Positions 10,388-48,645 of a stretch of DNA of 48,645 bases are shown piece after piece (within the stretch, counting starts at the first letter, position 1; every line of letters begins with the position of its first letter). The stretch lies in assembly GCA_001785805.1 (NCBI GenBank), contig MFUU01000010.1:1936-50580 (forward strand), written 5' to 3'. Source of the DNA: Candidatus Nomurabacteria bacterium RIFCSPLOWO2_01_FULL_39_17 (GTDB lineage: Bacteria; Patescibacteriota; Minisyncoccia; Phycocordibacterales; UBA9973). The position numbers and the translations under genes are program-made. The notes under the pieces were generated by a model. That model saw only the letters and a program-made list of their open reading frames with translations. It had not been told where the DNA came from and ran no database searches.

Positions 10388-10405
10388 ATAAAGTTTCGCA
10401 AAATC

Positions 10406-10466
10406 AAAGTTTTTTGTGTCCTCGGTTCCCCGGGTCCCTATCCCGGCCAAACCATTCAAAAACTTT
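10406..10466 (-). repeat. Nested-hairpin interspersed element, family 1, long-form copy E
   Basis: Minus-strand reading: AAAGTTTTT-GAATGGTTTGGCCGGGATAGGGACCCGGGGAACCGAGGACAC-AAAAACTTT. Homologous to copy D. Confidence 0.8.
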
Positions 10467-10500
10467 ATTTTGCTTCACTTTATATATTATATACTATTTG

Positions 10501-15827: not shown

Positions 15828-15891
15828 CAGAATTTACTTTTTCGAACGGTCTGGGGATTTTTTCCGAGGACCTGAGAAAAAGAAAATTCTG
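15828..15891 (+). repeat. Nested-hairpin interspersed element, family 1, short-form copy A
   Basis: CAGAATTTACTTTTTC-GAACGGTCTGGGGATTTTTTCCGAGGACCTGA-GAAAAAGAAAATTCTG. Lies in the spacer before glyA. Confidence 0.85.
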
Positions 15892-21300: not shown

Positions 21301-21314
21301 AAATAAAGATTTTA

Positions 21315-21323
21315 TGTTAAAAT
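21315..21323 (+). promoter_or_regulatory. Extended -10 box TGTTAAAAT, 8 nt upstream of ATG 21332 (ileS)
   Basis: TGn plus TAAAAT. It overlaps the alternative upstream ATG at 21314. Confidence 0.35.
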
Positions 21324-21331
21324 CAGTCATA

Positions 21332-24300
21332 ATGACTGAAAAAGAAGAAAATACTAAATCCGATATGGTGCTTCGGGAGGAGCGAGTTTTGGAATTCTGG
21401 CAAAAAAATAAAATTTTTGATAAATCTTTAAAACAAACTGAGGGAGGTAAAGAATTTATTTTTTACGAAGGTCCGCCAACTGCCAACGGTAAACCGGGCA
21501 TTCACCACTTGGAAGCGCGGGCTTTTAAGGATGCAATTCCGAGGTATAAGACAATGCAGGGTTATCATGTCCGCCGAAAGGGCGGATGGGACACGCATGG
21601 ACTCCCCGTTGAACTGCAAGTAGAGAAAAAGTTGGGGTTAAATTCAAAAAAAGCGATTGAGGAATATGGTATTGCCAGGTTTAACCAAAAATGCCAAGAA
21701 AGCGTCTGGGAATATTTGAATATGTGGGAAAAATTTACCGAGCGCATCGGTTTCTGGCTTGATCAGGAGAATCCATATGTGACTTATCATAACAATTTTA
21801 TTGAATCTGTCTGGAATGTAGTAAAAAAAGTTGATAAGCAGGGGCTTCTCTATAAAGATTATAAAGTTGTGCCATGGTGCCCGAGGTGCGGAACAGTGCT
21901 TTCTTCGCATGAACTTGCACTAGGATATGAGGATGTAAAAGATTTGTCGATATATGCGAAATTCAAAATTCGCTCCGTCGGTGAAAAATTTTCTCAGGTC
22001 CTCGGAAAAAATCCCCAGACCGTTCGAAAATCTTCCCCCGACTCCGCTTTACCATTGTACTTTCTTGCATGGACCACTACACCGTGGACTCTGCCTGGCA
22101 ATGTCGCTCTGGCAGTGGGAGAGAAAATTATTTATGTAAAAGTGAAATTGAATAATGAAATATTTATTCTGGCGAAAGAACGAATTTCTATATTGCCAGA
22201 ACCTTATGAAATTCTGGAAGAAATACATGGACAGGATTTGATTGGTTTGGAATACGAACCGCTTTTCCCATATCTTGCCGAGATTATTCCCGAGAACGAA
22301 AAATCAAAGTTAGAAAAAGCATACAAGGTTTACGGGGCAGACTTCGTGACTACTATTGATGGTACAGGCATAGTGCACACGGCTGTGATGTATGGGCAGG
22401 ATGACTTTGAACTTGGCACCAAAGTTGGCTTGCCGAAGCATCACCTCGTTAATTCCGAAGGTAAATTTATCAAAGGGACGGGACTCCTGGAAGGTCGGTT
22501 TGTAAAAGAAAAAGATAACAACAATAAACCGACACTTGATGTAGACATCATTAAATATCTGACCGATAAAAATTTATTCTTCAAAAAAGAAAATTATGAG
22601 CACTCATATCCGCACTGCTGGCGCTGTAAAACAGCGCTTATCTACTATGCGCGAGATTCTTGGTATTTTAAAATGTCCGACCAAAAGATAAAAGAAAAAT
22701 TAATTGCCGAGAATAAAAAAATAAACTGGGAGCCTTCGCACATCGGGGAAGGGCGTTTCGGCGAATGGCTGAGGGAAGTAAAAGATTGGGCAATCTCCCG
22801 CGAGCGGTACTGGGGCACGCCATTGCCGGTCTGGGAGTGCAGTAAGTGTAACAAGAAACATGTAATTGGAAGCTTGGAAGAATTAAAAAAGAAAACAAAA
22901 AAGTCCGGCAACAAGTATTTCGTAATGCGCCACGGCGAAGCGGGTAATAATATTAAAAATGGCATTCATCATAGAGATTTGGAATATAGCGCCAAATTAA
23001 CAGAAAAAGGGAAAAAACAAGTATTAGAGAGTTTAAGGAATTTTAAAGAGAGAGTAGATATCATTATTTCTTCTACATTTGAAAGAGCAAAGGAAACCAC
23101 TGAAATAGTTTGTGGACAAATTAATTTTCCGTTAGGAAAAGTTATTTATAACCAACAAATTAAAGAACAAGAAACTAGTTCGTTTTTTGACGGCAAGGAT
23201 AAAGCAGTTTTTGATGAATATTATGATGGAGGTTATTTACTGGATAATCCAAATGAAATTTTACCAGATAGTGAAAGTTTTGCTCAGGTAATTAAAAGAA
23301 TTGGGCAATTTATTTATGATTTAGAAACGAACTATTCTAATAAAAATATTTTAATTATTGGTCATGGGAATGCGACTAATGCTTTGAGTTTTATAGTAAA
23401 AGGATTATCATTAAATAATTTATCAAGTAAAAATAATCCATTTATTTCTCTTAAAAATGCCGAAATCAGGGGATTTGATTTTATCCCACTTCCGCATAAT
23501 GAAAACTTTGAACTTGATTTACACCGGCCCTATATTGATGAAATTAATCTTGTCTGCGAATGCGGAAGCAAGCTGACGCGCACGAAAGAAGTAATGGATG
23601 TTTGGCTTGATTCTGGCACGATGCCGTTCGCGCAGGACCATTATCCATTTGAGAATAAAGATTGGGTAGAAGGAAAAGGTTATCCGGCAGATTATATTTC
23701 CGAAGCGATTGATCAGACTCGCGGGTGGTTTTATACGTTACACGCCGTTGGCGTCCTGATGGGTCGCGGGAGAGCATTTAAGAATGTTATTTGTCTCGGA
23801 CATTTACTTGATGCCACTGGCAAGAAAATGTCGAAATCTCTGGGAAATATAGTTAATCCGTGGGTGATGATAGAAAAATACGGAGCAGATACACTTCGTT
23901 TATGGATGTATTCTGTCAATCAGCCCGGAGAGTCTAAGAACTTCGACGAAAAGACAGTTGCTCTGCTTTCCCAGCAAGTTTTTGGACTGCTTTATAACGT
24001 GCTCGCATTTTATGAACTTTACCGCGATAGGGTGCTGGAAAAGAACAACCGACCCAAAATATCTAAAAATGTTTTAGATATTTGGATTCTTGCCAAACTT
24101 GATGAGTTGATAGGACTTTCAACTAAAAATTTAGACAATTATAAATTGCTTGAACCAGTAAGAGGCATGAAAGACTTTATCGGCGACCTTTCAACTTGGT
24201 ACTTGCGCCGTTCGCGAGAGAGAATAAAAGAAGGGGACGTGGAAGCAAAACAAACTTTATACTTTGTATTAAAAACTCTTACGAAATTATTAGCCCCATT

Positions 24301-24913
24301 TGCTCCACTTTCTGCGGAAGATATTTGGCTACGATTGAAAAACGACAAAGATACCGAAAGTGTGCATCTAGTAGAGTGGCCAAAAATGTCAAAGAGACTC
24401 TTTGACATTTTTGGCAGTGGAGAAGATGAAATTTTAAAGAATATGCAAACGGTGCGTGACATTTGTACTGCGGGTAAAGCAGAAAGACAGAGGTTAAATA
24501 TTCCTATTCGCCAGCCCCTAAATAGATTAGATATGCCACAAGGGTTACCCATTGAATATGTTGAGATTATAAAAAGTGAGTTAAATGTAAAAAGTCTAAA
24601 TTATACACTAAAAGCGGAGACAGGTATTTATAAAATAGGGTTTGATTCAGAAATTACCCCGGGATTAAAACAAGAAGGGAATTATCGCGAACTTGTTCGC
24701 GCCCTGCAAGATATGAGGAAGAAAATGGAGCTTACACCGAGCGATGTCATAGCCATAGCTTTCGAAACGAACGATATGGGTAAAGCTCTAATTGGAAAAT
24801 TTGAAGCTGATATAAAGAAAACCGTACTTGTGTCCAAAATAGAGTTTAAAGCAAATGACGGTCAAGAAATCAAAATAGACGAATTGGTATTTAAGGTAAA
24901 AATTGATAAATAA
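21332..24913 (+). CDS. ileS: Isoleucine--tRNA ligase with two insertions (repeat-derived ~18 aa, and a ~208-aa histidine-phosphatase domain)
   Basis: PPTANGKPGIHH (HIGH region), [27 protein letters not shown]-terminal anticodon-binding region. An alternative start at ATG 21314 would add 6 aa. Confidence 0.9.
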   Translation: MTEKEENTKSDMVLREERVLEFWQKNKIFDKSLKQTEGGKEFIFYEGPPTANGKPGIHHLEARAFKDAIPRYKTMQGYHVRRKGGWDTHGLPVELQVEKKLGLNSKKAIEEYGIARFNQKCQESVWEYLNMWEKFTERIGFWLDQENPYVTYHNNFIESVWNVVKKVDKQGLLYKDYKVVPWCPRCGTVLSSHELALGYEDVKDLSIYAKFKIRSVGEKFSQVLGKNPQTVRKSSPDSALPLYFLAWTTTPWTLPGNVALAVGEKIIYVKVKLNNEIFILAKERISILPEPYEILEEIHGQDLIGLEYEPLFPYLAEIIPENEKSKLEKAYKVYGADFVTTIDGTGIVHTAVMYGQDDFELGTKVGLPKHHLVNSEGKFIKGTGLLEGRFVKEKDNNNKPTLDVDIIKYLTDKNLFFKKENYEHSYPHCWRCKTALIYYARDSWYFKMSDQKIKEKLIAENKKINWEPSHIGEGRFGEWLREVKDWAISRERYWGTPLPVWECSKCNKKHVIGSLEELKKKTKKSGNKYFVMRHGEAGNNIKNGIHHRDLEYSAKLTEKGKKQVLESLRNFKERVDIIISSTFERAKETTEIVCGQINFPLGKVIYNQQIKEQETSSFFDGKDKAVFDEYYDGGYLLDNPNEILPDSESFAQVIKRIGQFIYDLETNYSNKNILIIGHGNATNALSFIVKGLSLNNLSSKNNPFISLKNAEIRGFDFIPLPHNENFELDLHRPYIDEINLVCECGSKLTRTKEVMDVWLDSGTMPFAQDHYPFENKDWVEGKGYPADYISEAIDQTRGWFYTLHAVGVLMGRGRAFKNVICLGHLLDATGKKMSKSLGNIVNPWVMIEKYGADTLRLWMYSVNQPGESKNFDEKTVALLSQQVFGLLYNVLAFYELYRDRVLEKNNRPKISKNVLDIWILAKLDELIGLSTKNLDNYKLLEPVRGMKDFIGDLSTWYLRRSRERIKEGDVEAKQTLYFVLKTLTKLLAPFAPLSAEDIWLRLKNDKDTESVHLVEWPKMSKRLFDIFGSGEDEILKNMQTVRDICTAGKAERQRLNIPIRQPLNRLDMPQGLPIEYVEIIKSELNVKSLNYTLKAETGIYKIGFDSEITPGLKQEGNYRELVRALQDMRKKMELTPSDVIAIAFETNDMGKALIGKFEADIKKTVLVSKIEFKANDGQEIKIDELVFKVKIDK
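21983..22035 (-). repeat. Family 1 nested-hairpin element, copy F, in frame inside ileS
   Basis: Contains TTCTCAGGTCCTCGGAAAAAATCCCCAGACCGTTCGAAAA, 40/40 identical to the reverse complement of copy A. Translated as [18 protein letters not shown]. Confidence 0.85.
22886..23509 (+). other. Histidine-phosphatase (phosphoglycerate-mutase-like) domain inserted within IleRS
   Basis: KYFVMRHGEAGNN (RHG motif, His codon 22931-22933), ISSTFERAKETT, ILIIGHGNATNAL (second His codon 23363-23365). Bounded by WECSKC (22838-22849) and VCEC (23555-23563). Confidence 0.75.
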
Positions 24914-35522: not shown

Positions 35523-36566
35523 TTACGACTCCTCTTCAGCGAACTTTTTTCTAATTTCCTTCAGGATTTGGTCTCCGATTTTTTTATTTTCTTTCAAGAA
35601 TGTTCGGGTAGCATCATAACCCACACCCAACTTAACTTTCTCTTTCGCTTCACCTCTCGGCGCATAAAAGTATGAATTTCCGCTTTTTTCTACGATCTTG
35701 AACTTTTCTCCCAAGGCCATGATTTCTCCTTCTTTAGAGATTCCCTCGTTATAAATAATATCAAATTCTGTTTGCTTAAAAGGTGCAGCCACTTTATTTT
35801 TCACGACTTTTACCCGCGTACGGCTTCCCACTACTTCCTCTCCTTTTTTGATTTGGGCGATTTTTCTAATATCAAGGCGGACCGAAGTATAGAATTTCAG
35901 CGCCTTACCCCCGGGAGTAGTTTCTGGATTACCAAACATCACTCCGATTTGCATCCTGATTTGATTGATGAAGATTACAACGGTTTTAGATCTAGCAACT
36001 ATGGCGGTTAATTTGCGGAGCGCTTGCGACATCAGACGGGCTTGTTTTCCCACATGATATGCTCCCATGTCGCCTTCTATCTCGTCTTTCGGCGTCAACG
36101 CTGCCACTGAATCTACCACTACTACATCAATTTTTCCTGTTCGTACCAAGGACTCCACTATTTCAAGCGCCTGTTCACCATTGTCCGGCTGGGAAATCAA
36201 CAGATTATTTATATTTACCCCAAGTTTTTTTGTGTATTCAGGGTCCATTGCGTGCTCGGCATCTATATAGGCGCAAACCCCGCCTTTTTTCTGCGCTTCG
36301 GCAACGATATGTAAAGATAGTGTGGTTTTTCCGGAAGACTCCGGTCCAAATATTTCAATAATCCTACCCCGCGGAATTCCCCCAACACCGAGTGCCATAT
36401 CCAGCCCAATGGAACCGGTGGGAATTACATTGATATCCACTTTTGGCGAATCGCCAAACTTCATAATAGCGCCCTCGCCGAATTTTGTCTGGATTGCCTT
36501 GACGGTATCGTCCAGCATTGATATTCCTACTCCTTTATCTTCTTTTTTCTCTTTTTTCTTCAACAT
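35523..36566 (-). CDS. recA: Recombinase RecA
   Basis: 347 aa. Walker [26 protein letters not shown] and [19 protein letters not shown]. Confidence 0.95.
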
Positions 36567-36575
36567 AATAATTTC

Positions 36576-36641
36576 GCGGGAAATACTTTTTATAAGGTCC
36601 TCGGAAAAAATCCCCAGACCATTCTAAAAAGTATTTCCCGC
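36576..36641 (-). repeat. Family 1 nested-hairpin element, short-form copy C
   Basis: Perfect 17-bp arms GCGGGAAATACTTTTTA / TAAAAAGTATTTCCCGC around TAAGGTCCTCGGAAAAAATCCCCAGACCATTC. Lies 9 nt upstream of the recA ATG and contains the stop codon of the upstream ORF. Confidence 0.88.
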
Positions 36642-36986
36642 TTCATATATTAATTTATAATTTTTTTCATTTATATTTCCAAATTTATCTTTGGCTGTTA
36701 TATTAACTATATTATAGCCCGAAAGCAAAACAATTGTTTCATTGAAATTTCCATCTTTGTCTATTGAAATTTCTCTGCCATTTAGGCTCAAGTTTATCGC
36801 ATTTTTAGCATTCCCGTGTACCTCCATGACGCTATTGGTAACTCTTGCTCCATCTGTTAGGTTTACATTTCTTATTTTTACTCCGAAAATCAAATTTTTT
36901 GACACGAAAAAAGCGTAGATTATAATAAAAATAAAAAAGACAGACAACACGCCGATTTTTAATATTTTTTTTACATCTTGATTCAT
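36624..36986 (-). CDS. Small membrane-anchored protein with an Ig-like/beta-sandwich ectodomain, function unknown
   Basis: 120 aa. N-terminal TM helix ILKIGVLSVFFIFIIIYAFFV. The last five codons and the stop lie inside repeat copy C. Confidence 0.5.
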   Translation of the reverse strand: MNQDVKKILKIGVLSVFFIFIIIYAFFVSKNLIFGVKIRNVNLTDGARVTNSVMEVHGNAKNAINLSLNGREISIDKDGNFNETIVLLSGYNIVNITAKDKFGNINEKNYKLIYEAGNTF

Positions 36987-36997
36987 TTTCTTTTGTA

Positions 36998-37063
36998 GCA
37001 GGAATTACTTTTACGAATGGTCTGGGGATTTTTTCCGAGGATCTGAGAAAAAGAAATTCCTGC
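36998..37063 (+). repeat. Family 1 nested-hairpin element, short-form copy B
   Basis: GCAGGAATTACTTTTAC-GAATGGTCTGGGGATTTTTTCCGAGGATCTGA-GAAAAAGAAATTCCTGC. Lies between the ftsK stop and the next gene start. Confidence 0.88.
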
Positions 37064-37070
37064 GAAAAAA

Positions 37071-39296
37071 TTATATTATATTATCACCATTTTCGTCGCG
37101 CATTATTTTTTCTAATACTTCTCTCGGCTTGGCGCCGTCCCCGGGTCCTATCACTCCGCGCTCTTCCAATTTATCCATCAGCCTGGCCGCCCGCGCATAC
37201 CCCAACTTTAATTTTCTCTGCAAATATGAAGTTGAAGCTTTGCCTGCTTCTACTACGCACATCCTTGCTTCCTCATACATTTCATCGTCGTCAGCACCTT
37301 CATCTTCGAGCGTGCTTTCGAAAATACTTTTTTCTGCCGAAATACTTCCGGAAGTTATAGAAATTTCTTCCGACACTTCGTCTCTATACGTATCTGCCAG
37401 ATATTTGACAACTTTCTTTACTTCACTCTCCGAAATAAAAGCGGATTGCAGTCGTTCCGGCTGGGCATCTCCCGAAGAATAGAGCATATCGCCGGCACCC
37501 AACAACTTCTCTGCTCCGCCCGTGTCAAGGATTGTGCGTGAATCAACTTGTGAAGAAACTTTCAACGCAATGCGGGCAGGAATGTTGGCTTTAATCAAAC
37601 CGGTGATAACATTTACTTCCGGACGCTGGGTTGAGAGAATAAGATGTATGCCCACCGCTCTGGACATTTGCGCCAGCCGCACGATGGCGGATTCAAGCTC
37701 TCTCGGGTAAGTGCTCATTATATCTGCCAATTCGTCTATTATGATAATAATATATGGCAGGCGGTCGGCATTTTCCACCATCTCGCCCGCGCCATTAGCT
37801 TTGGTTTTCTTCGGGTCTTTGTTGAAGACATTGTTATGATAAGACTCTATATCTCTCACGGATTCTGCTTCCAATATGTCATAGCGTCGGTCCATTTCTT
37901 TGGCTGCCCATTTAAGCGCTAATATAGTTTTCTTTGCTTCGGTTATAACGGGGGTAAGCAAGTGGGGGATATTCTTATAAAGAGTAAGTTCTACGCGTTT
38001 CGGGTCTATCATTATCAATTTTAAGTCGTCCGGGCCATTTTTATATAAAAGGGAAGTGATTATAGAGTGTATCGTGACTGATTTTCCAGAACCGGTTGCT
38101 CCAGCCACTAGGCAATGTGGCATTTTTACCAGAGTGTCAAACATCGCCTTGCCGGAAATAGCGCGGCCCAGCGCTATGGTAAGGGGTTTTGAAGCATTTT
38201 TGAATTTATCATCCGCGAGGAGGGTAGCAAGCCCGACCAGCGATTTTGTTCTATTGGGAATCTCGATACCGACTAATGATTTTCCGGGAATCGGAGCCTC
38301 TATTCTTATCGGATGGGCAGCCAGAGCAAGCGCCAAATCATTTTGCAGTCCGACTATCCTTGAGAGCTTCATTCCTTCGGCCGGTTTTAGGGCATAACGA
38401 GTGACCGTGGGGCCAATGGTTATTTCATCCATCTCAACTTCAATGCCGAAGTTGGCAAGTGTGCGTTTGATAATATTTGCGTTAGCCTTGATGTCGCCGG
38501 TGTTTGGTTTGCCCCTGTCTTCTTCAAGTAACGAAAGCGGAGGGGGAACATAATTAGGCGTTAGGCCATAGGCTTTAGGCTTTAGCTTTTTAAATTCAAT
38601 TTCTTCCATTGCCTCGCCATAGCTTTCAGCGTCGGCGGGTTCATCTTTACTTTTCTTTTTTCCGACACCCAATGCACTTTTGATTTTTTCTTTTGTGGTT
38701 AACTCCTCTTCTTCTGACATAGATTTTTCAACTTCCTCTATCTCATCTTCATTTAAGGTTAAAACCGGTTCTTCTTTCCTCTTTCTTTTTATTAATGACC
38801 AAATTTTAGCAAAAATCGGCGTGAATATCGGTCTAGCATCGAACATTACAAGAATTGAAATTATTAAAAGCGCGCCCAAAAGAACGATACTTGCATAACT
38901 ATCAAAAAGAAATATGAATGGGGTAGATAAAACCCTCCCCAAGAATCCGCCCGAGTGTTCGCCCGAAGCGACATCAATAATACCGAGAGAAGAAAGAAGG
39001 AAAATTACAGAACTTATGGTTCGCGTCCATCCGATATTTGGAGTTTCCGATTTTAAAAACGAAGATCCGAGCAGCATAAAGAGAGAGGGAAGCAGTATAT
39101 ATCCGACACCCAGTAAATAGTGCAGGTTTTCATAAAAGAATTTTCCAGCTACTCCCGCCACGTTAAATGCAGACATCAAAAAAAATAATGCTAAAACGAA
39201 AAACACAATCGCTAAAATACTGTGCTTAGTTTCAGTTTTTAACTTATTAGTTGGAAAATTATTTTTAGAATATCTTTGTCTGTCTTTTTTTGCCAT
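37071..39296 (-). CDS. ftsK: DNA translocase FtsK/SpoIIIE
   Basis: 741 aa. N-terminal TM segments, acidic/basic linker, Walker A GATGSGKS, IIIDELAD, C-terminal gamma wHTH SYLQRKLKLGYARAARLMD. Confidence 0.92.
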   Translation of the reverse strand: MAKKDRQRYSKNNFPTNKLKTETKHSILAIVFFVLALFFLMSAFNVAGVAGKFFYENLHYLLGVGYILLPSLFMLLGSSFLKSETPNIGWTRTISSVIFLLSSLGIIDVASGEHSGGFLGRVLSTPFIFLFDSYASIVLLGALLIISILVMFDARPIFTPIFAKIWSLIKRKRKEEPVLTLNEDEIEEVEKSMSEEEELTTKEKIKSALGVGKKKSKDEPADAESYGEAMEEIEFKKLKPKAYGLTPNYVPPPLSLLEEDRGKPNTGDIKANANIIKRTLANFGIEVEMDEITIGPTVTRYALKPAEGMKLSRIVGLQNDLALALAAHPIRIEAPIPGKSLVGIEIPNRTKSLVGLATLLADDKFKNASKPLTIALGRAISGKAMFDTLVKMPHCLVAGATGSGKSVTIHSIITSLLYKNGPDDLKLIMIDPKRVELTLYKNIPHLLTPVITEAKKTILALKWAAKEMDRRYDILEAESVRDIESYHNNVFNKDPKKTKANGAGEMVENADRLPYIIIIIDELADIMSTYPRELESAIVRLAQMSRAVGIHLILSTQRPEVNVITGLIKANIPARIALKVSSQVDSRTILDTGGAEKLLGAGDMLYSSGDAQPERLQSAFISESEVKKVVKYLADTYRDEVSEEISITSGSISAEKSIFESTLEDEGADDDEMYEEARMCVVEAGKASTSYLQRKLKLGYARAARLMDKLEERGVIGPGDGAKPREVLEKIMRDENGDNII

Positions 39297-39632: not shown

Positions 39633-40418
39633 ATGTTTGGAGATCAAAAAGACACACAGAAAAATCTCAAAGACTCCGAAAATAAGTCCGTAACACCCTA
39701 CGGAGCTAGCTCTCAAGGCATGCCTTTTATGTTGTCTTATACGAAGACAAATAAGCTTATTACAGCGCTTTATATGGTAACGGACATAATAGACAAAGAA
39801 GAACCATTGAGGAATAAATTAAGGACATTAGGAACTGGGATTATATCAGACATCAATACCGCGCCAATCAACATTTGCAGTAAGATATCTGAAATAATGT
39901 CCTTTTTAGATATTGCCGGAGCGGTTAATATCATATCTTCAATGAATTGCAATATTTTAAGAAAAGAGTTTATGGAACTGGATCAATCTATAAGAGAGTC
40001 TACTAATACAGTTGGGAGCATAAGTAAACAAATAAATCTTTCGGAATTTTTCACAGGAGAACTTTCTCCCAAGCTAGATAGAAAACAATCCAAATCTATT
40101 GGACATAAGAATTCAGCAAGACTTGGTGTCCAAAAGGGCGGTACTTTAATGCAAGCTCTGTCCGATACGACTTTAAACAGTCCAAACACAGTTGCCCCTA
40201 ACGTTTTTAAAAAGGAAAGACGTGAAGAAATAATTAAAATTATTAAAAATAGTTCAAATGGGACTACTATAACGGACATTAAAACCCAAGCGAGCGGGCC
40301 CCTTGTTTCTTGTAGTGAGAAAACTCTTCAAAGAGAGTTGATTTCTATGGTAAAAGACAATGTCCTTTATAAAACAGGAAAGAAACGCTGGAGTCGATAT
40401 TTTTTAGCTAGGCCTTAG
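39633..40418 (+). CDS. Putative transcriptional regulator with a C-terminal winged-helix domain
   Basis: 261 aa. The C-terminal TITDIKTQASGPLVSCSEKTLQRELISMVKDNVLYKTGKKRWSRYFL resembles a wHTH. The N-terminal helical region LITALYMVTDII...EPLRNKLR is of unknown family. Confidence 0.5.
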   Translation: MFGDQKDTQKNLKDSENKSVTPYGASSQGMPFMLSYTKTNKLITALYMVTDIIDKEEPLRNKLRTLGTGIISDINTAPINICSKISEIMSFLDIAGAVNIISSMNCNILRKEFMELDQSIRESTNTVGSISKQINLSEFFTGELSPKLDRKQSKSIGHKNSARLGVQKGGTLMQALSDTTLNSPNTVAPNVFKKERREEIIKIIKNSSNGTTITDIKTQASGPLVSCSEKTLQRELISMVKDNVLYKTGKKRWSRYFLARP

Positions 40419-40428
40419 CCACTAGGCG

Positions 40429-40472
40429 TTAGGCTTTAGTTTTTTGCATTAAGCTAGTTGCCTAAAGCCTAA
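40429..40472 (+). terminator. Hairpin after the regulator gene (11-bp perfect stem, 22-nt loop); possible terminator
   Basis: TTAGGCTTTAG ... CTAAAGCCTAA. There is no clear U-tract after the stem, so terminator function is uncertain. Confidence 0.3.
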
Positions 40473-40566
40473 AAGCTAGGGTCTATTTTCTTGCTTTTAA
40501 ATTAGAAATATGCGAATATAGATTTACGGATGATTTTACCCTTCCCCTTCAAAAAGGGTGAATTGT

Positions 40567-45156: not shown

Positions 45157-45186
45157 AAAAAACACCCCTTCAGGGGTGTTTTTTGT
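45157..45186 (+). terminator. Rho-independent terminator
   Basis: AAAAAACACCCC-TTCA-GGGGTGTTTTTTG: GC stem, 4-nt loop, T-run. Lies 47 nt after the stop codon. Confidence 0.85.
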
Positions 45187-45214: not shown

Positions 45215-45256
45215 CCCCACCAACAAGACTAGCAAGGACAGTCCTTGCTAGTGGGG
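45215..45256. repeat. Left flanking palindrome of the RAYT gene
   Basis: CCCCAC(caacaaga)CTAGCAAGGAC-A-GTCCTTGCTAGTGGGG. The left arm carries an 8-nt bulge. Confidence 0.8.
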
Positions 45257-45267
45257 AGGGATAGGAT

Positions 45268-45273
45268 TATAAT
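45268..45273 (+). promoter_or_regulatory. -10 box TATAAT, 6 nt upstream of ATG 45280
   Basis: Perfect hexamer. No Shine-Dalgarno. Confidence 0.3.
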
Positions 45274-45279
45274 TAAATA

Positions 45280-45951
45280 ATGCAAAGAAAAGATCCTTTT
45301 ATTCCTGGAGAGTATTATCATATTTACAATCGCGGTATCGATAAACGGATTATTTTTAAATCATTAAATGACTACCGTCGTTTTATGATGCTTTTATATG
45401 TTGCCAACAGTGACGAACCAATCAGGCTTGATAATCTTTTAAATATTCTTAAGAAAAGTTATAAGGAAATTTTGGAATGCGATAAAGGGAAGCCACTTGT
45501 TTCAATAGGCGCGTGGTGTCTTATGGCCAATCATTTTCACATTCTTCTTAAAGAAGAAACAGAAAGTGGAATTTCACAATTTATGAAAAAACTTGGTACT
45601 GGATATTCAATGTTTTTTAATATTAAATATCACCGCACCGGCGGACTTTTTGGTGGACCATTTAAATCAAAACATATTAAAGATGACAATTACCTTAAAC
45701 ATTTATTCGGATATATACACTTAAACCCGCTCGACTTAGAATTTTCTGGTTGGGAAAATTTGATATATAAACAAAATTCAAAGTCATGGAAAAGTTTTCT
45801 TGAAAAATATACATATTCAAGTTATCAAGACTATGTCGGGAAAGAACGTCCGGAAGGGAATATTATTAACAAGCATGTTTTCCCAAAGTATTTTTTGAAA
45901 GTAAAGGACTTTAGTAATTTTATTGATGATTATCTTTCTTTCGATTTATAA
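45280..45951 (+). CDS. REP-associated tyrosine transposase (RAYT) / IS200-like Y1 HUH transposase
   Basis: 223 aa. YHIYNRG N-terminus, HUH motif NHFHILL (45532-45540), catalytic Tyr context GYIHLNPL (Tyr codon 45712-45714). Confidence 0.8.
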   Translation: MQRKDPFIPGEYYHIYNRGIDKRIIFKSLNDYRRFMMLLYVANSDEPIRLDNLLNILKKSYKEILECDKGKPLVSIGAWCLMANHFHILLKEETESGISQFMKKLGTGYSMFFNIKYHRTGGLFGGPFKSKHIKDDNYLKHLFGYIHLNPLDLEFSGWENLIYKQNSKSWKSFLEKYTYSSYQDYVGKERPEGNIINKHVFPKYFLKVKDFSNFIDDYLSFDL

Positions 45952-45983
45952 ACCACTAGCAAGGACTGTCCTTGCTAGTGGTT
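45951..45983. repeat. Right flanking palindrome of the RAYT gene
   Basis: AACCACTAGCAAGGAC-T-GTCCTTGCTAGTGGTT: perfect 16-bp arms, beginning at the last base of the stop codon. Confidence 0.85.
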
Positions 45984-47169: not shown

Positions 47170-48645
47170 ATGAAAAAAATACAAAAAATATTTTTAATTG
47201 GTTTTCTCACTCTAGCTCTTGTCGTGGGAGTAGGAGTTGGTTCTGCAGGTGCTACGCTCACCCTCGATGCGTTAACCGTTACCAGTAGTGGCGCGCTTAC
47301 CTTGACCGGAGCAGTAGGTTCGGCTATCACAATTGGCGCTGCTGGGCAAACCGGCACAATCAGTGTCGGCGACTCAACTGGCGCTATGACCATGAATTTG
47401 GCCAGTGGCAATAGCATAAAAACGATTAATCTTGGCACCGGAACGGGTGTTAAGACGATTCATATCGGCGATAATGCCACTCCAGCTAACGTTATCACAA
47501 TCGGTGGCGCAGCATCTGGTACGGTTGTAGGTGGAACATTCAAGATTGGAACCTTGAGTTCAACAGTTGCAGGAAGTGGATTGACTATTAATGCCACTAC
47601 TCCTAGAGCAGTGGACATCAATGTTGACGATAATGATGTTGCCACGACAGATACGGCCGTGCTCCTTTCCGCTGGTCGTTTTAGATTAATGAGATATGCT
47701 AACTCTGATTCAGAAGATTATGCAGTTCATGGTTTAGTTAAATATTCAGCGTTGACCAAAAGCCGATTTGGCGCTGGTGTAATGGGAGCGGCAGAAACAA
47801 CTGGCGCAGTTACCGCCTCTAATCTTTTAGCTGGTGTTTTGGGACGATTTGGAACAGCAGCTACGCTTACTTTGACCGGTGCTACTGATCGTGTTGCTGC
47901 CGTAGCTGCCTTCAACAACAATAGTGTTGCTTTAGCTGGTTCTGGAAAATCAGCCGGTTTGTTAGTAATGGAGACCGATGTTGGAACTCCGATTGATCTT
48001 GACTACGGTTTGGAAATCCAGAATAGTGCCGCGACAACAGGTATTCAGGTTGGAACTGCAACAACCGGTATTAATTTGGCCGGAACTTTCACCACAGGTA
48101 TGAGCGTTGCTAATACAGCAACTACTGGAATTAACTTTGCCGGCGGAGCAGCAACCCAGCCTATTCTAGTTGGAGCTTTTAGCTCGACTGTTCCGGGAAG
48201 CGGCGTGATTATTAACGACAGCAATGTAAGAGCGGTTGATGTCCATGTTGACGATAACGACGTTGCCTCGGCAGATACGGCTAAAACTCTCTCTGCCGCT
48301 CGCTTCAGATTGATAAGATATGCTGATTCTGTTGCAGAAGATTACGCGCTTCATGGCTTGGTTAAATATACAGATGGAGTGACCAAGAGCCGATGGGGTG
48401 CTGGTGTCATAGGAGCTGCCGAAATGACGGGCGCAGTTACTTTGTCTAATCTTACAACTGGTGTTTTGGGACGATTTGGAACATCAGCTACGCTTACTTT
48501 GACCGGTGCTACTGATCGTGTTGCTGCCGTAACTGCCTTTAACAACAACGGTGTTGCTTTAGCTGGTTCTGGAAAATCAGCCGGTTTGTTAGTAATGGAG
48601 ACCGATGTTGGAACTCCGATTGATCTTGACTACGGTTTGGAAATC
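47170..48645 (+). CDS. Secreted repeat-containing surface protein, 3' end outside window (absent from the ORF track)
   Basis: My manual translation from ATG 47170 gave 492 codons with no stop up to the window edge. Signal peptide MKKIQKIFLIGFLTLALVVGVGVGSAGA. Gly/Thr/Ala-rich. The five minus-strand track ORFs here are antisense artefacts. Confidence 0.8.
   Translation, partial: MKKIQKIFLIGFLTLALVVGVGVGSAGATLTLDALTVTSSGALTLTGAVGSAITIGAAGQTGTISVGDSTGAMTMNLASGNSIKTINLGTGTGVKTIHIGDNATPANVITIGGAASGTVVGGTFKIGTLSSTVAGSGLTINATTPRAVDINVDDNDVATTDTAVLLSAGRFRLMRYANSDSEDYAVHGLVKYSALTKSRFGAGVMGAAETTGAVTASNLLAGVLGRFGTAATLTLTGATDRVAAVAAFNNNSVALAGSGKSAGLLVMETDVGTPIDLDYGLEIQNSAATTGIQVGTATTGINLAGTFTTGMSVANTATTGINFAGGAATQPILVGAFSSTVPGSGVIINDSNVRAVDVHVDDNDVASADTAKTLSAARFRLIRYADSVAEDYALHGLVKYTDGVTKSRWGAGVIGAAEMTGAVTLSNLTTGVLGRFGTSATLTLTGATDRVAAVTAFNNNGVALAGSGKSAGLLVMETDVGTPIDLDYGLEI
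47554..48645 (+). repeat. Tandem ~209-codon coding repeat (units about 47554-48019 and 48178-48645, period 624-627 nt)
   Basis: The 3' parts, 47833-48019 versus 48460-48645, differ at only 5 positions. The 5' parts are much more diverged. Confidence 0.85.

Follow-up and report, generated by a model that had tools for sequence, protein, structure and literature searches.

The stretch of DNA analyzed here (hereafter the window) comprises 48,645 nt of contig MFUU01000010.1, has a G+C content of about 39% and is numbered from its own first base. Its source organism groups with the Patescibacteria, among Nomurabacteria/Paceibacteria-like members, and the best relatives of its isoleucyl-tRNA synthetase (IleRS) in protein searches are 73-78% identical. 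The window contains an intact ileS gene coding for this enzyme (top PDB match, the T. thermophilus IleRS 1ILE, E 7.6e-149) and, in frame within this essential gene, a copy of a dispersed hairpin-forming repeat that is also present in several intergenic spacers of the same window (Table 1).

The repeat copy in ileS and its empty counterparts

Nucleotides 21989-22030 of the plus strand are identical at 42 of 42 positions to the reverse complement of 15839-15880, which belongs to an intergenic copy (copy A), and 100 dinucleotide shuffles yielded no such match. The original prediction, made from the letters of the window, had reported an identity of 40 of 40 nt; the repeat is there and is even longer, the 40-mer sitting at 21991-22030, one base away from where it had been placed. 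The inverted arms that it had described as partial are likewise present and pair further out than supposed, closing a hairpin of 66 nt, and the reading frame of ileS is uninterrupted, as it had stated. Its estimates of size, 53 nt and some 18 extra codons, have to give way to 66-69 nt and 23 codons, the net insertion measuring 69 nt with one of the two flanking TCC included. A covariance model of the family matches this copy at 21982-22037 on the minus strand (55.7 bits, E 1.8e-10). The minus strand, antisense to ileS, is the purine-rich strand (G strand) of the element; it is predicted to fold with -35.5 kcal/mol (z -4.9), compared to -21.1 kcal/mol (z -2.9) for the sense strand, and two A.C mismatches in the stem of the latter become G.U pairs on the former. 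The identity with copy A is not evidence that the element jumped recently, since other genomes have an identical core.

Comparison with relatives reveals that the segment is an insertion adding exactly 23 codons to a loop of IleRS. The span from SSHE to WTTTPWTLPG measures 43-47 residues in 90 of 120 protein relatives and 67 in the window IleRS, and a loop of 11 residues (e.g. KIKGQENTYIL) is found in 36 of 78 metagenomic ileS loci, so that an equally long segment is far from universal among related enzymes and the short, unstructured loop expected of an empty site is widespread. The DNA of this loop folds with 0 to -6 kcal/mol in empty alleles and with -30 to -77 kcal/mol in filled ones. One short-loop allele belongs to a syntenic relative, L127 (L-numbers label single contig loci from relatives), which has the gene order Lactamase_B, SHMT, ..., ArgRS, IleRS. 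Once the 23 codons are subtracted, the window loop, KIRS joined to ALPLYFLAW, equals in length the empty loop KIVGFDKAYFIAW of L127; the L127 spacer corresponding to the site of copy A is 18 nt long and element-free, and a covariance-model scan of the 12.8 kb of this locus gave no match. The outer 12 nt of the left stem arm in the window resemble the host codons GTTGGT(TTT)GATAAA of the L127 empty allele, a resemblance that was weak in an automated test and that may hint at homology.

The element directly precedes the editing motif WTTTPWTLPGN, in the variable stretch to which it had been assigned, and the structural expectation of a loop is borne out as well. In an AlphaFold2 model covering residues 1-529 and built on a shallow alignment of 35 sequences, the insertion is modeled at a predicted local distance difference test (pLDDT) score of 51-57, between beta strands at about 95 and immediately before the Thr-rich editing peptide, and the connective peptide 1 (CP1) domain that follows scores 91-97. 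In the alignment with PDB 8C8W, residues 221-249 of the query lie opposite residues 213-218 of the chain, with a 4-residue gap at that place.

The same loop has been occupied repeatedly. The covariance model finds six matches in the 849 kb around ileS from 80 relatives, all of them at this ileS loop and in the orientation seen in the window, and a rough neighbor-joining tree scatters the family-bearing alleles among empty ones. Homologous stem arms are found in the ileS genes of the window, L001, L128, L136 and L146, with differing apical parts, and stem positions 4-6 appear in five fully compensated variants (GGU/CCC, GCU/AGC, GGC/GCC, CCC/GGG and GCC/GGC). In L174, the IleRS of which is about 72% identical, 39 nt comprising the left arm and half of the core agree with the window at every position, the 3' half having been lost; this allele is a half-deleted remnant of a window-type insertion. 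Moreover, at least six unrelated hairpin families, of 26-44 amino acids and -30 to -77 kcal/mol, fill the same IleRS loop in other relatives (L123, L124, L145, L150, L155, L158, L159, L163, L167, L169, L175-L177, L185, L187, L193, L195, L196 and L200). One of these unrelated families (SILEGQ..SGRSEDS-like) recurs in a UvrB.

Elsewhere in the gene, IleRS residues 536-705 (window 22919-23428) form an inserted histidine-phosphatase domain (PF00300) that is frequent in the clade, and in L125 (10001-13521) IleRS is split into two open reading frames (ORFs) directly after this domain.

A family with a conserved core and variable stems

A scan of one genome per GTDB species with the pattern AGGTCCTCGG-N6-26-CCAGACCRTTC returned at least 119 matching stretches, nearly all from records of Patescibacteria. 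Their metagenome-assembled genomes (MAGs) carry, as deposited, titles of Nomurabacteria, Paceibacterota, Parcubacteria, Kaiserbacteria, Minisyncoccia, Patescibacteria and, in some cases, Saccharibacteria; about ten matches from other phyla fit chance expectation and are rejected by the covariance model, and the copies in genomes of Patescibacteria number at least 110. No match to the element was found in viral contigs, and there is therefore no sign of a phage vector. Literature searches brought up no report of such elements in the Patescibacteria (candidate phyla radiation), and a family of translated hairpin elements combining a conserved core with partly host-derived stems is thus apparently undescribed.

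All copies share one architecture, read here on the purine-rich strand. A basal stem, P2, is specific to each copy (median 18 bp, up to 28 bp) and is topped by an internal loop, 5'-GAAY/UGA-3'. Above it stands a conserved helix, P3 (GGUCU/GGACC with a U.G pair), followed by a GG/CC step with a GA bulge; the invariance of P3 is in part built in, as the search pattern required it and the counts are of fixed-pattern matches. Copies of "family 1" have no further helix beyond the GG/CC step, and those of "family 2" and others bear an apical hairpin, P4, of which there are several types; below P2, about 40% of copies have in addition a 3x3 loop of GRA/GAA and a short outer helix. The element ranges from 56 to 105 nt, with a core of about 45 nt conserved at the nucleotide level. 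P2 and P4 covary strongly, 91.7% of cells being paired as opposed to 74.3% after shuffling and 42-62% after sliding, and double-sided changes occur in 11 of 12 P2 pairs. A K-turn reading of the GAAY/UGA loop was rejected by inspection, its geometry misfitting the consensus. The TCC...TCC flanking the ileS copy was likewise considered as a 3-bp target-site duplication and discarded, for the GRA/GAA-type motif occurs in only about 40% of copies and goes with the extra outer helix; a TTTTC is duplicated in L069, and no direct repeat is consistent across copies. Rfam 15 gave no match in the window at gathering score and, at permissive thresholds, only sub-threshold matches to generic miRNA hairpins; a tRNA/tmRNA scan found none.

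A covariance model built from 99 copies identifies six copies in the window with E < 1e-9, the rest being at noise level, and a relaxed pattern recovers five. The ileS copy is the sole genic one of the six, the other five lying in spacers. The spot between the HIT-family gene and recJ is also occupied in L024 (6394-6461) and L075 (4075-4142), RecJ being about 72% identical across the three genomes. Two inverted copies (36562-37077) bracket a gene for a 120-residue protein (36624-36986, weak Glucodextran_B match) between recA and ftsK, which may reflect a composite unit or mere chance.

Within the family at large, and among the matches listed, 96 of 128 core matches fall in stop-free ORFs of at least 150 amino acids; strict rules place 72 of 114 in genes and 30 in spacers, with 12 left ambiguous. 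Pfam identifies among the hosts UvrA, UvrB, UvrC, UvrD, PolA, RecJ, SMC, Tgt, LeuRS and PheT, together with a class-V aminotransferase (IscS-like), a GatA-type amidase, the CCA-adding enzyme, TrmD, MnmA and others, and the conserved motifs of these proteins run on in frame at both sides of the copies. In the strictly genic set, one strand is read as QVLG (38 copies), SGPR (17) or RSS (1) and the other as RGPE (10) or EDL (5); the sixth frame, which contains a TGA, is used once, by a variant without the TGA. There is hence no common peptide, the element being read in five frames, and because genic copies preserve the reading frame and stay clear of the one that has a stop, we infer that it is translated in its host genes. 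More than 30 sites are filled in one genome and empty in another, at protein identities of up to 85%. The same site of a protein may also be occupied in several genomes (Tgt in seven, PheT in six, UvrA in five, LeuRS and PolA in four each), in copies that sometimes differ in frame or orientation. Genic copies have the pyrimidine strand as sense in a ratio of 56:16, where open frames predict 3:2 (p 0.002). As a separate observation, the LeuRS of L022 (1990-5037) contains, besides the hairpin element, a NUDIX domain lodged behind its editing domain.

Table 1. Position of ileS, of the parts of its repeat copy, and of related features in the window
Feature	Coordinates	Strand	Remarks
ileS ORF (host gene)	21314-24913	+	1199 amino acids, uninterrupted; Pfam tRNA-synt_1, Anticodon_1, His_Phos_1
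ileS element, complete hairpin	21977-22042	-	66 nt, 22 codons; purine-rich G strand = minus, antisense to ileS
Core and inner 5 bp of stem, ileS copy	21989-22030	+	42/42 to reverse complement of copy A
Left arm of basal stem P2, ileS copy	21977-21993	+	GTCGGTGAAAAATTTTC; outer 12 nt copy-specific
Right arm of basal stem P2, ileS copy	22026-22042	+	GAAAATCTTCCCCCGAC; pairs with GTCGGTGAAAAATTTTC
TCC flank, left	21974-21976	+	GGA on G strand; 3-nt flank motif
TCC flank, right	22043-22045	+	3-nt flank motif
Copy A	15828-15891	+	Intergenic, Lactamase_B-family gene / glyA (serine hydroxymethyltransferase, SHMT)
Intergenic copy	36576-36641	-	recA / 120-amino-acid gene
Intergenic copy	36999-37062	+	120-amino-acid gene / ftsK; C-to-T in helix P3 pairs only as G.U on G strand
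Copy with longer apical hairpin P4	35404-35482	+	efp / recA; 83.1 bits; second family of the original prediction, same core boxes
Partly degenerate copy with P4	10398-10473	-	HIT-family gene / recJ
RAYT-like Y1/HUH transposase gene	45280-45951		223 amino acids; HUH and YxxxNP (YIHLNP) motifs

Stem origin, strand asymmetry and competing explanations

Pairs of filled and empty alleles bear on the origin of the stems. In the IscS-like gene, L069 is filled and L020 empty, and the left arm of the former, GGAAAAGAAGAAAGGTTTT, is older host sequence (18 of 19 nt in the empty allele), the right arm being an inverted copy of it; the junction shows a 6-nt microhomology with the host, TTTTCC, and the hairpin, some 100 nt long, comes with a net gain of 63 nt. 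A host arm with its inverted copy is also seen in L044 compared to L077 (UvrC) and in L050 compared to L054, and in L013 and L020 the host homology comprises the inner part of one arm and the outer part of the other. Of 37 filled/empty pairs, 17 have a hairpin at least 6 nt longer than the net insertion and another 17 have one at least 6 nt shorter, and the automated test of the arms scored one arm as host-derived in 10 pairs and the whole hairpin as inserted in 14, with 10 unclear. The possibility that the newly copied arm is always the 3' one on the pyrimidine strand was rejected, the same test giving 4 versus 6 and no polarity. Flipped cores are found at one UvrA site.

The stems are also asymmetric between strands. 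On the purine strand, G.T pairs of P2 outnumber A.C mismatches by 78 to 23 (p 4e-8 under a strand-symmetric rule), and the ratio is 47:14 where that strand is antisense to the host gene, as in ileS, 10:3 where it is sense and 13:4 in intergenic copies. Since the ratio is equal whatever the orientation of the host gene, the constraint follows the element and not the mRNA, which points to an element acting at the single-strand level rather than as an mRNA signal.

We consider it likely that the ileS segment represents a non-coding DNA element, dispersed in the Patescibacteria and able to form hairpins, of which one copy sits in frame in ileS, is tolerated there and persists at the DNA level by copying and template switching, perhaps without a dedicated enzyme. 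A stop-free copy with a length that is a multiple of three would simply be translated, lengthening by 23 residues the tip of a beta-hairpin that stands at the CP1 editing domain's entrance, a position presumably tolerant of such additions. The element itself would work as single-stranded DNA and not via a peptide or mRNA, the uniformity of its core being maintained by copying or conversion between copies. Intrastrand templated synthesis (snap-back or template switching) could create the stem of the element, preserve its pairing and extend it, a process able to copy adjoining host codons in inverted orientation, and covariation and flipped cores would therefore be explained without selection on every pair. 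The transferable unit may be the core with a few T/A-rich stem pairs, because these are exactly what the ileS copy shares with copy A; candidate routes for the transfer of a core to a new locus are microhomology-guided template switching between copies and an enzyme acting on the folded purine strand. Over evolution, copies would be gained, have their apical part swapped, be flipped and be partly or wholly deleted, the outcome being a patchy distribution over a small set of permissive protein loops. A bolder version, which we advance tentatively and regard as somewhat more apt to be wrong than right, holds that the core of about 45 nt is an active single-strand signal for an enzyme, possibly of the HUH/RAYT type, which homes to few sites and seeds self-extending palindromes by inverted copying of host codons.

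Several observations weigh against persistence by copying and tolerance as the whole explanation. The core boxes are identical among orthologous ileS copies even though their IleRS are only 65-77% identical, while a purely selfish copy inherited vertically should decay, and frequent conversion or re-insertion, or else a function, is therefore needed. The restriction of the six matches in 849 kb to one loop makes occupation far from random, and a filter of tolerance alone may not explain it. In addition, a host-derived arm shows up in no more than about 40% of pairs and has no consistent polarity, and the closest ileS genes (protein search and metagenome scan) are 77-78% identical, with no near-identical strain carrying an empty site and no near-identical pair of genomes polymorphic for the insertion. 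The ascertainment of P3 by the search pattern belongs here too, as does the failure to link a mobilizing enzyme to the element (see below).

These points lend some weight to the alternative that the host, or a resident system, retains the hairpin as a functional nucleic-acid signal. It would be a structured motif of single-stranded DNA or antisense RNA to which a protein binds, e.g. a site for replication, recombination, uptake or an HUH enzyme, and selection for that function would account for its presence in ileS. The near-invariant core with its purine-rich, GA-type internal loops, shared by divergent genomes in five reading frames, would be expected of such a signal, as would a strand asymmetry independent of gene orientation, orthologous sites that stay occupied with intact cores, and the orientation bias of genic copies. 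Most relatives, however, do without the element at every site examined, its density drops from six per 49 kb in the window to zero outside ileS in the 849 kb of relatives, decay products are seen in L174, L003 and window 10398-10473, and neither an Rfam match nor a promoter or partner gene was found, so that we judge a maintained signal unlikely. A strong hairpin within a coding region suggests that the segment might be absent from the working protein, being lost as an RNA intron, through ribosomal bypass or by intein-like excision, and hairpin-type bypass elements exist in yeast mitochondria. Yet genic copies preserve the frame and stay clear of the stop-containing one, as would be expected only of translated copies, model searches of the window gave no intein, group I or group II intron signature, and a peptide of 22 amino acids is too small for an intein, all of which renders removal very improbable. 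Slightly less credible still is a native, lineage-specific IleRS loop from which the intergenic copies derive: ileS is indeed the most consistently occupied site in its own neighborhood, but spacers and no fewer than 25 further genes harbor the same core, which occurs in either orientation and in five frames, most IleRS lack the segment, and unrelated hairpins fill the same loop. Finally, repeats can misjoin contigs, and a repeat-induced chimera could in principle have placed a copy in ileS; the exactly preserved frame, flanks that are ileS on both sides, homologous insertions in at least ten independently assembled contigs and the same arms in L001, L128, L136, L146 and L174 leave an assembly artefact with next to no probability.

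If the ileS segment is indeed a tolerated DNA element, it would offer a concrete nucleotide-level source for one class of the unexplained insertions often present in proteins of the Patescibacteria, and selfish DNA inside essential genes, known from Rickettsia, would occur also in a second, unrelated group with reduced genomes. The element is found in MAGs labeled with several Patescibacteria groups and returns to the same protein loops. Its copies provide natural marks of places where aminoacyl-tRNA synthetases and repair enzymes permit insertions. In practical terms, such repeats can break assemblies, inflate apparent protein divergence and pass for functional domains. Their host-derived arms afford a view of palindrome growth, putatively by template switching, in organisms not yet culturable alone. 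Should the core prove to be recognized by an enzyme, it would constitute a clade-wide generator of new surface loops in aminoacyl-tRNA synthetases, Uvr proteins and PolA, a mode of protein insertion undescribed in bacteria outside Rickettsia, with a new logic of conserved top and host-derived stem.

Relation to known repeats and other features of the window

By behavior, the closest analogue appears to be the Rickettsia palindromic elements (RPE; Ogata et al. 2000, 2002), which are described as being of about 100-150 bp, confined to one genus and endowed with a conserved peptide per family (PMC10969869). The analogy had been drawn in the original prediction and is apt for the in-frame insertion and the tolerated extra peptide. 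Both are palindromic repeats of reduced genomes that lie in frame in many unrelated housekeeping genes, recur at the same sites in related species, supply extra surface peptides compatible with the fold and have no known transposase. The present element differs by its 56-105 nt, its nucleotide-conserved core, its five frames without a common peptide, its copy-specific stems partly made of host codons, and its spread over many MAGs labeled with different Patescibacteria groups, and on that description it would not be a member.

REP and REPIN sequences (repetitive extragenic palindromes and their paired forms) are extragenic, 20-40 bp long and tagged by GTAG or CGTC, and match palindromes flanking their RAYT, or REP-associated tyrosine transposase (PMC3116915, PMC3733652). 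The element resembles them as a short hairpin acting as single-stranded DNA, with a RAYT-like gene and its flanking palindromes in the same window; in contrast, it is larger and mostly intragenic (72 of 114, among the matches listed), its consensus has neither GTAG nor CGTC, a flank motif (GRA/GAA) occurs only in a subset of copies, and the palindromes on either side of the RAYT-like gene of the window and of five homologues are different from it. Bacterial MITEs (transposable elements of the miniature inverted-repeat type), for which in-frame fusions are known (Correia, ERIC and the Coxiella QMITE), are bounded by fixed terminal inverted repeats, come with target-site duplications and derive from a parent insertion sequence (PMC10969869, PMC5896051). 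They too are small non-autonomous repeats with inverted symmetry, at times tolerated inside ORFs, whereas here the termini, i.e. the outer stems, differ in every copy, with no consistent duplication; no parent insertion sequence was seen in 1.77 Mb of loci, where the search aimed only at a Y1 gene. Being mostly intragenic, lacking both the GTAG/CGTC tags and fixed termini, and being unlike the RAYT-flanking palindromes, the element is thus not a member of the RPE, REP/REPIN or MITE groups.

Intrastrand templating can perfect and extend palindromes and flip their loops, and in this the element resembles the quasipalindrome template-switch mutagenesis reportedly described by Ripley in 1982 and by Lovett and co-workers, and the hairpin-loop inversions that Kelchner and Wendel are said to have found in plastid DNA in 1996. 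Its paired double changes, host-derived arms with inverted copies, junction microhomology and flipped cores match such a mechanism; these are, unlike the element, local processes that yield no dispersed family with a conserved core, and they leave the arrival of cores at new loci unexplained. The small dispersed repeats of cyanobacteria (Elhai and co-workers, 2008) are reportedly hairpin-associated, apparently mobile without an encoded enzyme and able to lie within genes; they would be similar in small size, hairpins and genic occurrence, and different in length (21-27 nt) and phylum.

The transposase encoded in the window scores above the cut-off for Pfam Y1_Tnp, its best NCBIfam model being the REP-associated tyrosine transposase, below cut-off, and its family counts 2551 members at E <= 1e-10, mainly in the Nomurabacteria/Paceibacteria clade. 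The gene is flanked by two perfect palindromes of 29-31 nt, CCACTAGCAAGGAC(A/T)GTCCTTGCTAGTGG (45226-45983), and each of five homologues examined is flanked by a simple palindrome of its own, none like the element. The RAYT-like transposase was therefore rejected as mobilizer, and the case for mobilization of the element on single-stranded DNA by a Y1 HUH enzyme, based on the strand asymmetry and the presence of the Y1_Tnp gene, is circumstantial only, because the flanking palindromes do not resemble it. A terminator-like hairpin, AAAAACACCCCTTCAGGGGTGTTTTT, lies at 45158-45183, after an ORF of 1374 amino acids. TAGGC-rich short repeats, direct and inverted, occur at 38552-38587 and 40409-40488, one of them within the ftsK ORF. 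The regions 58-2481 and 47546-48645 show a large protein with TSP1/CARDB repeats, with a 561-nt internal repeat (1028-1781), and tandem repeats of about 625 nt that run past the end of the window.

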